From: Porphyromonadaceae bacterium
Lineage (GTDB): Bacteria > Bacteroidota > Bacteroidia > Bacteroidales > UBA12481
DNA length: 64,000 nucleotides
NCBI GenBank assembly: GCA_007280905.1
Contig: QYQM01000054.1
Location: 22,107-86,106 of the forward strand
Reading direction: 5' to 3'
Position numbers and translations under genes: made by a program. Shown here piece by piece: positions 10,441 to 14,964 of the stretch; within the stretch, counting starts at the first letter, position 1, and each line of letters begins with the position of its first letter. Below the pieces are notes generated by a model. That model searched no databases. It was not told the origin of the DNA and saw nothing but the letters and a program-made list of their open reading frames with translations.

Positions 10441-10935
10441 ATGAAAACAAAATATCTCTGGTTGTTTTTTTCTTTCCTGTCGGTATTCGGATGTGATCGA
10501 GAAGGATCTGTCGTTCCTTCTATTAATCTGATTAGCAATTCGGAATGTAAGGGAAAGGGTTTGAAAGCAGTTGCTGACCATTCCTCCGATCAGGATTGTA
10601 TCCAATATACGTGGGTGAGCGGGGATACCCTGATAATAAAGCACATGAATGCCGGATTTAATTGTTGCCCTGACGGTTTTCGGGTAGAGCTCAAGATTGT
10701 TGGTGATACGCTGGTCATTACCGAGGTTGAGAATGCCTCCATGTGTGATTGTAATTGTCTGTTCGACCTTAACTATAATCTGACTGGGATTAGTAAAGAC
10801 ACCTGGTGGATCCGGATAGAGGAACCCTATGTGCAGCAACCTGAAGAGAAGAAAATCCTGTTCAAAACAGAATTAAGAAAGAATCCTGACGGGGAATTTT
10901 GTGTTACCCGAACGGGGTATCCCTGGAAGTTATGA
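10441..10935 (+). CDS. Small Cys-rich lipoprotein (8 conserved Cys after the lipobox), unrecognised family; paralog of 13523-14029
   Basis: Lipobox LSVFGC. Motifs shared with its paralog: GDxLxIxHxNAGFNCCP, CxCNCLF(D/N)L, EPxV, GxFCVTR. Ends 25 nt upstream of serpin 1. Confidence 0.75.
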   Translation: MKTKYLWLFFSFLSVFGCDREGSVVPSINLISNSECKGKGLKAVADHSSDQDCIQYTWVSGDTLIIKHMNAGFNCCPDGFRVELKIVGDTLVITEVENASMCDCNCLFDLNYNLTGISKDTWWIRIEEPYVQQPEEKKILFKTELRKNPDGEFCVTRTGYPWKL

Positions 10936-10960
10936 TAAACAATGCTTTGTGATTAATAAT

Positions 10961-12178
10961 ATGAAAACATTGGAGAGATTTTTAGTTGTGATGGTTATGG
11001 TTGTTATGATCGCTTCGTGTTCGAAGGATAAGGATTATGAAACCAAACCATTGAACCTTCCGCTCAAAGCAGCCGGGGTGATCACAGCAGATAATACGTT
11101 TGGGCTGGATTTATATACCAAACTTGCCGGAGCAGCTGTTTCGGGAACAAACCTGATGATTTCGCCACTGAGCGTTTCACAGGCATTATCAATGACTTAT
11201 AATGGTGCCAATGGTGATACCAAAACCGCAATGGAGGAGGCACTTCGGATTGCTGGTTATGACCGGGACGAATTGAATCAATTGAATAAGACACTTGTAA
11301 CAGCCCTGGTTGCGCATGATGCCAAGGTGATAATATCGATCGCAAATTCGATCTGGTACCGGAAGGAGTACACTGTTTTACCTGATTTCATCACCAGAAA
11401 TCAAACTTATTATGATGCTGAAATCCGGCCGATGGACTTTACCGCTTCTGATTGCAAAACCGTGATTAATAACTGGGTATCCGATAAAACCAATAAAAAG
11501 ATCACCGAGATTGTGGATCAGATCAACCCTGAATCCTTTATGTTCCTGATCAATGCCATCTATTTTAAGGGTGCCTGGACCTATGCGTTTGATAAAAAAG
11601 ATACGTATCAGCAACCTTTCTATCTGGAAGACGGGAAAGAGGTTCAGGTGGATATGATGCATCAGGAAATGGATCTGAATATGTTTGCCAATGAAACATT
11701 TACATCGGTTGAACTACCTTACGGAAAGGGCAACTGGCGGATGTTCCTTTTTCTCCCGGAGACCGGGAAAACAGTATCCGATGTGGAAAAAAACTTTACC
11801 CCTGAGAATTGGAATAGCTGGCTGAATCGTTATGACACCATCTCTGAAGTGCAGTTTTCGCTTCCTAAATTCACCTTTTCTTATGAGGAGAGCCTGAAAG
11901 ATGCCCTTTCGGCAATGGGCATGGAGATTGCCTTTACCGATAAGGCCGACTTTACAGGGATCTTGCCGGAGGGAGGATTACTGATCACCGGTGTAAAACA
12001 CAAAACATTCATTGAGGTTAATGAAGAAGGGACTGAGGCTGCAGCGGTAACTTCAGTGGAGATAGGCCTTACCTCAATCGGTAATTTCATTACCTTTAAC
12101 AAACCGTTTCTATTTGCCATCGCGGAGAAATCCACCGGGGCGATTTTGTTTATCGGGAGAATGATGAAACCGGAATAA
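10961..12178 (+). CDS. Serpin (inhibitory type), lipoprotein; serpin 1
   Basis: ATG at 10961 gives MKTLERFLVVMVMVVMIASC (lipobox). Canonical hinge NEEGTEAAAVT and C-terminal FNKPFLFAI. Counting by alignment to alpha-1-antitrypsin spacing puts P1-P1' at Thr-Ser. Confidence 0.9.
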   Translation: MKTLERFLVVMVMVVMIASCSKDKDYETKPLNLPLKAAGVITADNTFGLDLYTKLAGAAVSGTNLMISPLSVSQALSMTYNGANGDTKTAMEEALRIAGYDRDELNQLNKTLVTALVAHDAKVIISIANSIWYRKEYTVLPDFITRNQTYYDAEIRPMDFTASDCKTVINNWVSDKTNKKITEIVDQINPESFMFLINAIYFKGAWTYAFDKKDTYQQPFYLEDGKEVQVDMMHQEMDLNMFANETFTSVELPYGKGNWRMFLFLPETGKTVSDVEKNFTPENWNSWLNRYDTISEVQFSLPKFTFSYEESLKDALSAMGMEIAFTDKADFTGILPEGGLLITGVKHKTFIEVNEEGTEAAAVTSVEIGLTSIGNFITFNKPFLFAIAEKSTGAILFIGRMMKPE

Positions 12179-12187
12179 ACGGGAGGA

Positions 12188-12238
12188 CGTTAAGGGCGTA
12201 AAGGATGTAAAGAAAGAAAAGAATGAAAAGAACGTGAG
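12188..12238 (+). repeat. Degenerate purine-rich period-8/9 word array (NGTAAAGG-like)
   Basis: cgttaaggg cgtaaagg atgtaaag aaagaaaag aatgaaaag aacgtgag, immediately after the serpin 1 stop. Confidence 0.5.
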
Positions 12239-12244
12239 ATTGTA

Positions 12245-12266
12245 GAGACGGATAATTATCCGTCTC
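12245..12266. promoter_or_regulatory. Perfect 22-bp palindrome between the two serpin genes (operator or processing hairpin candidate)
   Basis: gagacggataa|ttatccgtctc is a perfect palindrome. A third half-site, atccgtct, lies at 12271-12278. No T-run follows, so it is not a canonical terminator. Confidence 0.5.
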
Positions 12267-12305
12267 ATGATCATCCGTCTTAAGAAATTGAATAGGGGAA
12301 TTATT

Positions 12306-13520
12306 ATGAAAAGGATTAGTAAACTGATAGTTGTGGTATTGATAGTGGGATTTTGGTTCGCCTGTGATAAGGAGCCGGATCAGCCGCAACCACTGAACCT
12401 GACCCGAAATGAGCTTAAGGTTCTGCAGCAGGGCAACCAGTTTGGATTTGATCTTTTTAACCTGATGGGGAAAGAAAGCCCTGATTCAAATCTTTGCATA
12501 TCACCATACAGCATTTATACCGCATTGTCCATGGCTGCAAATGGAGCGGATAACCAAACGCTGGATGAAATGCTCAATCTTCTGGGCTTCCCGGGAAAGG
12601 ATGTGGCCGATCTGAATAAATCAGTCAAAAACCTGAACCAGGTTCTGATCGGGAAAGATCCGACTACGGTTTTCGAAACCGCCAACTCGGTTTGGTACAA
12701 TACAAACGGATTTACCGTATACCCTGATTTTACAGCCAACCTTCAGAATTATTATTCTGCAAGAGTTGAAGGGCTCGATTTTTCTGCACCTTCGGCTTTG
12801 GCCACGGTAAATGGATGGGTTAAAGAAAAGACACATGATAAAATTGATAAGATCATCGAAAAGATTAACCCCGAAGATGTATGTTTCCTGATCAATGCCC
12901 TCTATTTCAATGGAAAATGGACAAACCGGTTTGATAAGGACGATACTCACCTGGATTCTTTTACCAGTGCGTCGGGGAAAAGCCAGCAGGTACCAACAAT
13001 GTACCTGAAAGATACTTTAAACGCTATAATTACAGCAGATTTGCTAGCTGTTGAGCTGCCTTACGGGGATGGCAGCTGGTCGATGTACCTCTTTCTTCCT
13101 CCGAAGAATGTAAATCTGGATGATTGGTGCAGTCAGCAACTTTCGGGAGGTTGGGAAGATCTTCGGTCACAATTCGAGCCTGTGGAGGGAATGGAAGTTT
13201 ATCTGCCCCAGTTTAAGCTCGAAAATTCATTTGAACTCAGCAAGCAATTAAAGCAACTTGGTATTCCGACTGCCTTTACCGATGCCGCTGATTTTTCGAA
13301 GCTGGGTCCCGGATCCCTCTCCATCAGCCAGGTTTTGCATAAAACCTATATCGATGTTAATGAGGATGGAACCGAAGCTGCCGCTGTAACGGCTGTGATC
13401 ATTACCAGAACCTCAATGCCTGTTGATGTGATCCGGTTTAATCATCCCTTTATCTTTGTAATTGCTGAAAAATCAACGGGTTCCATAATTTTCATCGGAA
13501 AATTGATGAATCCGGAATAG
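12306..13520 (+). CDS. Serpin (inhibitory type), lipoprotein; serpin 2
   Basis: ATG at 12306 gives MKRISKLIVVVLIVGFWFAC (lipobox). Hinge NEDGTEAAAVT. RCL VIITRTSMPVDV differs from serpin 1. C-terminal FNHPFIFVI. Confidence 0.9.
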   Translation: MKRISKLIVVVLIVGFWFACDKEPDQPQPLNLTRNELKVLQQGNQFGFDLFNLMGKESPDSNLCISPYSIYTALSMAANGADNQTLDEMLNLLGFPGKDVADLNKSVKNLNQVLIGKDPTTVFETANSVWYNTNGFTVYPDFTANLQNYYSARVEGLDFSAPSALATVNGWVKEKTHDKIDKIIEKINPEDVCFLINALYFNGKWTNRFDKDDTHLDSFTSASGKSQQVPTMYLKDTLNAIITADLLAVELPYGDGSWSMYLFLPPKNVNLDDWCSQQLSGGWEDLRSQFEPVEGMEVYLPQFKLENSFELSKQLKQLGIPTAFTDAADFSKLGPGSLSISQVLHKTYIDVNEDGTEAAAVTAVIITRTSMPVDVIRFNHPFIFVIAEKSTGSIIFIGKLMNPE

Positions 13521-13522
13521 CC

Positions 13523-14029
13523 ATGAAAACAAGAACCTTTCTTTTATTGCCATTTTTAACCCTGGTGACCAGCTTTTGGCTTTCCTGCGCAAGGCAGGAT
13601 CATAACGGAGCAGCACTATCGGTTACGAATTCCTCAGATATGATGTGCAGGGCCAATGACCCGCTGAAAAGCAACGATCCTGCTCCGGAATCTTCCTGTA
13701 TCAATTTCAGTTACGATGGAGACAGTTTGCTCACCATGATGCATTATAACGCGGGTTTCAATTGCTGTCCTGAGCGTTTTACCGTGGATATTGAAGTCAA
13801 AGGCGACAGTCTGATCATCAGGGAAGCTGAACTCAAACAAGGTTGTAAGTGTAATTGTCTATTTAACCTTGAGATCAAGGTTCACAACCTTCCGGCCGAT
13901 ACCTATCATGTCAGGTTTGTTGAACCCTGTGTCAACCATTCGATACCTCGACTTATCTTTGACCTGGATCTGAAGAAGGAGCCGGTGGGGCAATTTTGCG
14001 TAACCAGGCCTGAAGGATGGTGGAACTAG
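13523..14029 (+). CDS. Small Cys-rich lipoprotein, paralog of 10441-10935
   Basis: Lipobox FWLSC. Shares the NAGFNCCP / CKCNCLFNL / FCVTR scaffold. Starts 2 nt after the serpin 2 stop. Confidence 0.75.
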   Translation: MKTRTFLLLPFLTLVTSFWLSCARQDHNGAALSVTNSSDMMCRANDPLKSNDPAPESSCINFSYDGDSLLTMMHYNAGFNCCPERFTVDIEVKGDSLIIREAELKQGCKCNCLFNLEIKVHNLPADTYHVRFVEPCVNHSIPRLIFDLDLKKEPVGQFCVTRPEGWWN

Positions 14030-14092
14030 CAAATACCAAAAAACAAAAAACAAATCCCAAATAAGCTCCAAACTCCAAAACTCAAAATCGAA
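14030..14092 (+). repeat. C/A-only period-7 word arrays (CAAAWNN x5, then CTCCAAA-like x3-4)
   Basis: caaatac caaaaaa caaaaaa caaatcc caaataa gctccaa actccaa aactcaa aatcgaa, starting directly after the stop at 14027-14029. Confidence 0.75.
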
Positions 14093-14107
14093 GCGTTGTC
14101 ACCCCGG

Positions 14108-14128
14108 TGATAACTGATAACTGACAAC
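14108..14128 (+). repeat. Tandem heptamer array, YGATAAC family (3 units), abutting a start codon
   Basis: tgataac tgataac tgacaac, then aa, then ATG at 14131. Confidence 0.8.
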
Positions 14129-14130
14129 AA

Positions 14131-14814
14131 ATGGAAAATAAAAACTTTCTTATAGGTGCGATAATTCTGGTGGCCGTTGGGCTTTTTGTTTCCTGTCATG
14201 AAGACCCCAATGAATTTTGCGAGTACGGGTTTAAAAAAGCTACAGTGGTTTATAGTGGTGCGCCGGAGGTTGACGGATGCGGATGGAAGATTTTAATCGA
14301 TTCTGTCTACTATCATCCGGTTAATCTCAGTATTGATTATCAAATTAGTGATCTGCCGATCCTGATAAAATACACGGCTGATCCTGAAGAATTCCGGTGT
14401 GGCCGGGGAGGGGCTACTTATCAGTCGATACGGATTACAGAAATTAAGAAGAATCCTGAAGAGGTTGGTATTCTTCATGAAAATGAATGGGAAAAGTATT
14501 CGATGGACCCGTTCCACCTCGATTCAGCCTATGTGGATGACGATTTGCTCATGATGCAGGTCAGCTATAGCGGCGGCTGCAGGAACCATGAATTAAATCT
14601 GTGGAAGCTTCCTCCGAATGCTTTGAATCCGCCACCCATTGAATTAGCGCTATCTCATGATGCCAATGGGGATATGTGCGAAGCTTATATCACCCGCTGG
14701 CTAATTTTCTCTCTGGTTCCACTTCGGGAAAGAGGAAAGAAGGAGATTAAGTTTCTTCTGCGAGGGTCACCGGAGATGTCGGCGTATTTCGGGACATACA
14801 TTTATAAATACTAA
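14131..14814 (+). CDS. Two-domain Cys-containing lipoprotein, function unknown
   Basis: Lipobox GLFVSC. The N-terminal half has the VDGCGWKILID motif. The C-terminal half has VSYSGGCRNHELNLW...SHDANGDMCEAY. It is the last gene of the serpin island. Confidence 0.65.
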   Translation: MENKNFLIGAIILVAVGLFVSCHEDPNEFCEYGFKKATVVYSGAPEVDGCGWKILIDSVYYHPVNLSIDYQISDLPILIKYTADPEEFRCGRGGATYQSIRITEIKKNPEEVGILHENEWEKYSMDPFHLDSAYVDDDLLMMQVSYSGGCRNHELNLWKLPPNALNPPPIELALSHDANGDMCEAYITRWLIFSLVPLRERGKKEIKFLLRGSPEMSAYFGTYIYKY

Positions 14815-14851
14815 GACTTTAAGACTGTAAGACTGTAAGACTGTAAGACTG
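14812..14851 (+). repeat. Tandem octamer array TAAGACTK x5, starting on the stop codon of the upstream gene
   Basis: taagactt taagactg taagactg taagactg taagactg. The first TAA is the stop of the 14131-14814 gene. Confidence 0.9.
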
Positions 14852-14886
14852 TGAGAGGATAGCTTCGGAGAAAATCTCATAGTCTT
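14845..14886 (+). terminator. Hairpin formed by the last octamer unit and an inverted partner word (terminator candidate)
   Basis: aagactgtgaga (14845-14856) pairs with tctcatagtctt (14875-14886): 12 bp including one G-U. The 18-nt loop contains cttcgg. The hairpin is followed by ttgg. More AGTCTW words lie at 14897-14902 and 14905-14910. Confidence 0.4.
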
Positions 14887-14933: not shown

Positions 14934-14964
14934 TTTGGTTTACTGAATCTTTTTCGTATTTTTG
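14934..14964 (+). promoter_or_regulatory. Bacteroidota-type promoter candidate for rpsO
   Basis: TTTG at 14934-14937, 19 nt spacer, TATTTTTG (TAnnTTTG) at 14957-14964; 38 nt before the ATG. Confidence 0.5.

Follow-up and report, generated by a model that had tools for sequence, protein, structure and literature searches.

A cassette of five genes for predicted lipoproteins, in which two serpins stand between paralogous members of an unannotated cysteine-rich (Cys) family and are followed by a NigD-like gene, was identified in an uncultured, environmental Bacteroidales bacterium (contig QYQM01000054.1, positions 22,107 to 86,106 of the forward strand, assembly GCA_007280905.1). This whole stretch of 64,000 nucleotides (nt) is referred to below as the window. 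Among lipoprotein-serpin loci, this cassette is a new variant. With slightly less than even confidence, we read it as a serpin embedded in a separate envelope-lipoprotein module of Cys-domain and NigD-like proteins, which would not be obligatory serpin cofactors. The genes, termed CysA, serpin1, serpin2, CysB, and the fifth gene, follow each other in this order on the + strand, and an open reading frame (ORF) check confirmed their predicted coordinates and gaps, with spacers of 25, 127, 2, and 101 nt. No description of the cassette or of the Cys family was found in the literature searched, the coverage of which was incomplete.

The same arrangement was found in about 20 other genomes, and chance in this window therefore does not account for the layout. 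The cassette lineage as compiled here comprises about 20 genomes (17 of the best 80 Cys loci, further loci, and the window itself), in which the layout is one frame with a variable number of serpins. In the common syntenic frame, the cassette is preceded by AIRS, release factor 1 (RF-1), orotidine monophosphate decarboxylase, DUF2851, (TrkA), and rmlD and followed by rpsO, pnp, and dNK. The usual gene order at the syntenic loci, here taken to be ancestral, is CysA-serpin-CysB-NigD-like with one serpin, the number ranging from 1 to 2 across the lineage. A second serpin was present in the window and in L004, L007, L008, L010, L044, and L086; the extra copy stands first in L007 and second in the window, and the L044 pair are recent duplicates. 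One cassette (L085) had no NigD-like gene. Another (L086:5354-9510) read TrkA-serpin-serpin-CysB-NigD-like, CysA and rmlD being missing, and two serpins and CysB being kept; L087 is probably of the same make-up. The assembly that contains L086 (CAYXQX01) also carries, at L037, a different Cys-family gene beside a PD40 protein. The cassette was retained over considerable divergence, with CysA identity down to about 35 to 38%. In a neighbor-joining tree, the upstream (A) and downstream (B) Cys proteins formed two monophyletic groups with congruent branching, the CysA of the window falling into group A. The duplication of the Cys gene therefore predates the lineage, and both copies were kept. The original prediction had taken the gene order as mirrored, implying two retained Cys-serpin pairs. 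This did not hold, since the commonest cassette has one serpin between the ancient Cys paralogs, and both a tandem duplication of a Cys-serpin unit and a mirror arrangement were rejected.

The generality of the Cys-serpin link was surveyed from both sides. The Cys-side survey covered the best 80 of 329 Cys-family loci in GTDB species genomes, with serpins sought within 10 kb; the serpin-side survey covered 80 diverse metagenome serpin loci, 52 of which were at least 5 kb long. A serpin adjoined the Cys gene at 17 of the 80 best Cys loci, all of them in one syntenic slot, so that they count as one evolutionary event. At about 60 of the 80, no serpin was present within 10 kb. At these serpin-free loci, Cys genes often stood in tandem, two or three in a row, and the 104 immediate neighbors of unlinked Cys genes were heterogeneous: the type IX secretion system (T9SS) sorting tail was the most frequent Pfam domain (10/104), and no peptidase or serpin family was among the 25 most frequent Pfam families. 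From the serpin side, a Cys gene was encountered at a single locus (L149), itself an ortholog of the window cassette. Serpins at 54 to 55% identity were still located in the cassette (L084 and L085), and those at 49 to 53% identity outside the syntenic block (L081, L082/83, L088, and L089) had no Cys neighbor. Only one serpin-linked Cys gene, at L066, lay outside the shared slot; it derives from an otherwise serpin-free subclade, and its genomic context is unlike that of the window. The island in question (L066:2659-11575) contains about twelve + strand lipoprotein genes, including two serpins, a PD40 protein, the Cys gene, a NigD-like gene, and small unknown lipoproteins. The Cys-serpin link is lineage-specific, with this one independent island. 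The preferential linkage in other genomes that the original prediction had put forward was thus largely contradicted, as about 60 of the 80 Cys loci and 79 of the 80 serpin loci lacked the partner.

CysA (10441-10935, + strand; 164 amino acids [aa]) and CysB (13523-14029, + strand; 168 aa, starting 2 nt past the serpin2 stop codon) share 35% identity (E, 2e-32) and are paralogs, as had been claimed. They had also been described as 8-Cys lipoproteins, which is correct for mature CysA but not for CysB, which has 9 cysteines, the extra one at the Tyr130 position of the family. CysA displays the motifs H-x-NAGFNCCP, GDTLxIxExE, CDCxCLFDL, EPY, and G..C..R..YPW; CysB keeps the core residues of the family, the B clade being relaxed at E97, D109, Y130, and Y160-P161. 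Neither protein had a Pfam or NCBIfam match, 67 family members had no Pfam model in common, and the family profile retrieved nothing from the PDB sequences at E values up to 10. An AF2 model of CysA, built from the 67-sequence alignment (predicted local distance difference test [pLDDT], 86.9; predicted template-modeling score [pTM], 0.78), was all-beta with nine strands, and a Foldseek comparison with the PDB and BFVD yielded no neighbor at E values up to 0.001. The disulfide-rich Cys domain is an unannotated family without a detectable structural neighbor, in agreement with the earlier suggestion that these proteins lack an annotated family. Its assignment as a potempin-like domain, a known inhibitor, or an immunoglobulin or carbohydrate-binding-module fold was rejected, since there was no match in sequence or structure.

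The family is large. A word-indexed search returned 88 clusters at 90% identity, and an exhaustive search of 50%-identity clusters returned 2,540 representatives at E values up to 1e-3 and 546 at 1e-30. The 329 loci in GTDB species genomes were distributed over Bacteroidales, Ignavibacteria, Kapaibacteria, Aminicenantes, and Zixibacteria. Many relatives contain two to five tandem Cys domains; in these multirepeat proteins only weak, subthreshold Pfam fragments (CarboxypepD_reg and Y_Y_Y) were detected, which we disregarded. In three relatives of CysA (P0089, P0092, and P0083), two to five Cys domains follow an N-terminal type I dockerin. Judged by this domain architecture, the dockerin-bearing relatives point to a possible role as extracellular binding modules in other phyla.

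Among 457 distinct Cys-domain instances, 376 had all eight cysteines. C36, C75, C104, and C106 were essentially invariant, and the remaining four were lost in pairs (C53 together with C154, and C76 together with C102), by which disulfide pairs are indicated; two further disulfides are predicted among the four essentially invariant cysteines. H68, N70, N74, E95, and R157 were nearly invariant, and E97, D109, E128, Y130, Y160, and W162 were highly conserved. These core residues were the same in the serpin-linked A clade and in unlinked members, with the B clade somewhat relaxed. Such a fixed polar patch, kept regardless of serpins, suggests that the family has a conserved site for a ligand or metal, which would be independent of serpins.

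The fifth gene (14131-14814, + strand) encodes a two-domain lipoprotein of 227 aa, which had been listed as a third Cys lipoprotein. It proved to be unrelated to CysA and CysB: BLASTP gave an E value of 0.15, hhalign aligned the signal peptides only, and a distant Cys paralogy was therefore rejected. Instead, the protein belongs to a known structural family. It matched NCBIfam NF051862 (NigD1/NigD2 family lipoprotein) over its full length (E, 4.9e-11; 42.8 bits, below the cut-off of 60) and Pfam NigD_C more weakly (E, 0.0018; 18.7 bits, below the cut-off of 22.6). Its AF2 model (pLDDT, 87.7) consisted of a small N-terminal beta domain followed by a beta sandwich that resembles NigD_C, and Foldseek aligned it over ∼200 columns with the PDB entries 3K6O (2.4e-9), 3K0Y, 4PQX, 3QWN, and 4J8Q (E, 2e-9 to 1e-6; probability, 1.00). 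From the model and the profile matches, the fifth protein can be described as a divergent NigD-like lipoprotein, which shares the two-domain fold of NigD1 (BT_4005) and NigD2 while remaining below the curated cut-offs.

The Cys and NigD-like profiles were not homologous to each other (hhalign), but the two kinds of domain were found fused in both orders. NigD_N-like domains precede a Cys domain in a group of proteins of 232 to 237 aa (P0061, P0062, P0066, P0067, P0071, P0072, P0081, and P0082) and in L055:2509-3237. With signal peptides removed, the N-terminal extension of the P0061 group aligned with the N-terminal domain of the NigD-like protein at an hhalign probability of 91% (E, 1e-6). 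In the reverse order, a Cys domain precedes a NigD_C-like domain in P0174, P0136, and L027:2322-3197. The last of these joins the NigD_C half in frame to CysB itself, which comes first, as do the neighboring genes in the window; this fusion could be real or a deletion or assembly artifact of that metagenome-assembled genome. A link of NigD-like proteins to serpins or to a Cys-rich partner was not found in the literature searched. As a separate observation, a high-GC, non-Bacteroidales contig (L098:3412-7242) carries a NigD_C-like lipoprotein gene followed by two serpins, an independent co-occurrence of the two.

Several results weigh against a serpin that is only embedded in a Cys/NigD-like module. 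Every A- or B-clade Cys gene seen was accompanied by a serpin. Both paralogs have been kept on either side of the serpin over long divergence, the Cys-serpin-Cys frame being preserved in every genome of the lineage whose contig can show it. The L066 island, which is independent, again combines two serpins with a Cys-family gene and a NigD-like gene. Together, these findings leave room for a real functional tie. On the NigD side, the link is occasional outside this clade: a narrow hidden Markov model detected a NigD-like gene at no more than 2 of the approximately 60 Cys loci without a serpin. Furthermore, scans of the region found sigma-70-type promoter motifs, Bacteroidetes-type (TAnnTTTG) promoter motifs, and terminators at chance frequency, so that operon status is read from strand and spacing. 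Finally, the exact consensus of the Bacteroidota lipoprotein export signal, C-X-K-(D/E)2-X (PMC5080379), was matched by none of the five N-termini; those of serpin1 (CSKDKD), serpin2 (CDKEPD), CysA (CDRE), and the NigD-like protein (CHED) are acidic after the lipid Cys and, by sequence, resemble that signal.

The linkage to serpins, together with the short gaps (including the 2 nt between serpin2 and CysB), would fit a dedicated protease-control module, as which the cassette had originally been proposed: CysA and CysB would dock, present, stabilize, or regulate the serpins, and the five genes would act as one unit. We consider this improbable, because the linkage amounts to one syntenic event plus one locus, because CysA is absent from L086 and probably from L087 with the serpins still present, because the invariant site of the family is unchanged in serpin-linked members, and because miropin, the best-matching serpin of known structure, works alone. 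A mirror-tree comparison gave correlations of r = 0.80 to 0.83 between Cys and serpin1 distances, no higher than those with housekeeping neighbors (r = 0.79 to 0.85); since the serpin value falls within the housekeeping range, the test was uninformative. Of the proposed module, the gene cluster is thus real and conserved, whereas the module role has not been established, and the distribution of the Cys family partly contradicts it. A dedicated serpin-partner role of the Cys proteins is unproven.

The same lack of excess mirror-tree signal would be expected if the five genes were functionally unrelated and neighbors by descent only. The whole neighborhood is collinear in all cassette genomes, so that adjacency, even if conserved, carries no information by itself. 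However, the cassette consists purely of lipoprotein genes between cytoplasmic housekeeping genes, fusions of Cys with NigD-like domains exist in other organisms, and serpin, Cys, and NigD-like genes occur together again in the different context of L066, as do serpin and NigD_C-like genes in the high-GC organism of L098. Mere descent seems to us about as improbable as the dedicated module.

A further possibility, somewhat less improbable but still unlikely, is that the cassette encodes a battery of inhibitors, in which the nonserpin lipoproteins would inhibit other protease classes in the manner of potempins, forming a broad anti-protease shield around the two serpins with which they are co-located. 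The potempins PotA to PotE of Tannerella forsythia are small outer-membrane lipoprotein peptidase inhibitors, which are encoded directly upstream of their target peptidases and have an oligonucleotide/oligosaccharide-binding (OB) fold or an up-and-down barrel with eight strands (PMC9890683). They share with the proteins of the cassette a small size, predicted lipidation, and an origin in Bacteroidales. After the NigD structures, the next-best PDB matches of the NigD-like N-terminal domain (approximately residues 30 to 110) were potempins D and A (8EHB, 8B2N, and 8B2Q; template-modeling score, 0.52 to 0.54 over 85 to 90 columns), a weak resemblance; in some proteins, the Cys domain is joined to this same N-terminal domain. 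In contrast, the Foldseek E values of these matches were only 0.03 to 0.09, the OB fold is a common one, and CysA and CysB have no similarity in sequence or fold to potempins, CysA lacking a match to any inhibitor. Unlike the potempin genes, the cassette has no peptidase gene within it or adjoining it, and none of the 25 most frequent Pfam families next to unlinked Cys genes is a peptidase. The contact loops of protease inhibitors usually vary, and a polar core that is invariant over about 450 domain instances is atypical of them.

According to the explanation that we prefer, a serpin within a Cys/NigD-like lipoprotein module, the five genes, most likely for outer-membrane lipoproteins, would have been inherited vertically and have become fixed between rmlD and rpsO in one uncultured Bacteroidales lineage. 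The serpins, to which alone a biochemical role can be assigned, would be the anti-protease part, serpin1 presumably being the ancestral copy and serpin2 a diverged second one. CysA and CysB are ancient paralogs whose recurrent evolutionary partner, to judge from the fusions in both orders, is the NigD-like lipoprotein rather than the serpin. Together with the NigD-like protein, they most likely have an accessory function as lipoproteins of the surface or of vesicles, binding a conserved ligand.

Both serpins are full-length members of their family. Serpin1 (10961-12178, + strand; 405 aa) matched Pfam Serpin PF00079 with an E value of 9.9e-114 over profile positions 2 to 370 of 370, and serpin2 (12306-13520, + strand; 404 aa) with 1.3e-103 over positions 3 to 370 of 370; they are 41% identical to each other. 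The PDB entry nearest to serpin1 was miropin of T. forsythia (5NCS; E, 9.7e-83; phmmer against the PDB). By their sequences, the serpins are new but appear to be members of the known miropin-type lipoprotein-serpin kind. As in all five products, in which a signal peptide read by eye terminates in a Cys at residue 18 to 22, in keeping with the lipoprotein signals predicted at the outset, serpin1 has a signal peptide ending in IAS-C and serpin2 one ending in WFA-C, and all five proteins would accordingly be lipidated. An inhibitory-type hinge was defined by small residues that permit loop insertion (P15 Gly, P14 Thr, and Ala-rich P12 to P9). Both serpins of the window contain such a hinge, E-G-T-E-A-A-A-V-T, and GTEAAA was kept in all orthologs compared.

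The reactive-center loops (RCLs) of the two copies differ. In serpin1, hinge and RCL comprise residues 355 to 375 (nt 12023-12085, + strand); in serpin2, the RCL comprises residues 353 to 372 (nt 13362-13421, + strand), as aligned with serpin1. Miropin can be cleaved at V367-K368, K368-T369, and T369-S370 and is displayed by vesicles as well as at the cell surface (bioRxiv 10.1101/2025.09.05.674453). Its V-K368-T-S aligns with G-L370-T-S in serpin1 and T-R368-T-S in serpin2, such that Leu370 and Arg368, respectively, occupy the position of the miropin Lys. In serpin1 orthologs the T-S pair was nearly invariant and was preceded by L, V, I, T, or F, and the second serpins of related genomes had very different reactive loops. 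It is a reasonable inference from these residues, hydrophobic in serpin1 and basic in serpin2, that serpin1 and serpin2 differ in the proteases they target. By analogy with miropin, the serpins may be lipid-anchored suicide inhibitors on the cell surface or on vesicles, which would trap foreign serine and perhaps cysteine proteases, the two RCLs providing two specificities.

Miropin (PDB 5NCS/5NCT) and the serpins of the window are alike in their N-terminal lipoprotein signal, the hinge GTEAAAVT, the x-T-S stretch, and their origin in the order Bacteroidales. Apart from the Lys noted above and the tandem arrangement of two serpins in the window, they differ in genomic setting: miropin is described as acting alone, with no operon mentioned (PMC9890683; bioRxiv 10.1101/2025.09.05.674453), whereas the serpins of the window share a conserved cassette with genes for three further lipoproteins.

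The one known role of NigD1 is in Bacteroides thetaiotaomicron, where hypervesiculation dependent on Dma1/Das1 requires it; Dma1/Das1 is a dual-membrane anti-sigma/extracytoplasmic function (ECF) sigma system that controls both NigD1 and NigD2 (PMC10927553). At three other loci (L066:371-3927, L081:1871-5259, and L089:3868-7236), a lipoprotein serpin gene was divergent to an ECF sigma gene and to a gene for a Dma-like anti-sigma factor of 460 to 500 aa containing OMP_b-brl_2, and the same pairing was seen at 8 of the 80 metagenome loci (L091, L102, L103, L110, L118, L121, L127, and L128). ECF sigma was also the commonest neighbor family of the 79 other serpin loci (8 of 113 neighbors). Unlike those loci, the window cassette has no ECF/anti-sigma pair beside it. 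The hypervesiculation phenotype of NigD1 and the ECF/Dma-like neighbors of other serpins are hints of an envelope-stress or vesicle connection; nothing relevant on serpins and NigD, or on serpin gene neighborhoods in Bacteroidetes, was found in the literature searched. Extending these hints, Cys and NigD-like proteins might constitute an unrecognized envelope module that is wired, in some Bacteroidota, to surface serpins and Dma-like ECF signaling. Such a system would serve in sensing of, or defense against, extracellular proteases at the outer membrane or on vesicles, with Cys and NigD-like proteins binding or inhibiting proteases or presenting the serpin. We regard this scenario as speculative and as the least probable of those discussed.

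The cassette is flanked by an RmlD-like gene (E, 4e-61) and a DUF2851 gene upstream and by rpsO and pnp downstream, and its flanks contain no mobility genes; both observations agree with what had been predicted. Horizontal transfer of the cassette was unsupported, as its GC content is only slightly below that of the flanks, mobility genes are absent, and its chromosomal slot is fixed. The common strand and the short spacers are consistent with an operon, and the five genes are probably cotranscribed. No Bacteroidetes-type -7 motif was found between rmlD and CysA, and the cassette may therefore be read through from upstream or use a nonconsensus promoter. The only intergenic motif of this type near the cassette (TATTTTTG, 14957-14964) lies 39 nt upstream of rpsO. 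The spacer between serpin1 and serpin2 contains a perfect hairpin, GAGACGGAT-AATT-ATCCGTCTC (12245-12266, + strand), 40 nt upstream of the serpin2 start. Its 9-bp stem was kept and its loop changed in a 92%-identical ortholog (L008), an extra copy of ATCCGTCT is present beyond it at 12273-12280, and no T-run follows it. The spacer between CysB and the NigD-like gene (14037-14128) is filled by smaller A-rich repeats (CAAAAAA, CTCCAAAA, and TGATAAC), and an 8-base tandem repeat (TAAGACTG, 5.6 copies; 14812-14856) starts at the NigD-like stop codon. An Rfam scan of the region gave no match.

If the link to the serpin is incidental, the locus represents an ordinary serpin duplication within a conserved gene order. 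In this one lineage, the serpin gene has stayed locked in by a pair of lipoprotein paralogs and a NigD-like gene. Since lipoprotein serpins such as miropin have been described as lone inhibitors, the cassette is a place to test for serpin helpers. It has also brought out a large, unannotated family of disulfide-rich extracytoplasmic proteins, with ∼2,500 clusters at 50% identity in Bacteroidota, Ignavibacteria, Zixibacteria, and others. The fusions of Cys and NigD-like domains, taken together with the vesicle-control phenotype of NigD, therefore offer a way into two families without an assigned function.

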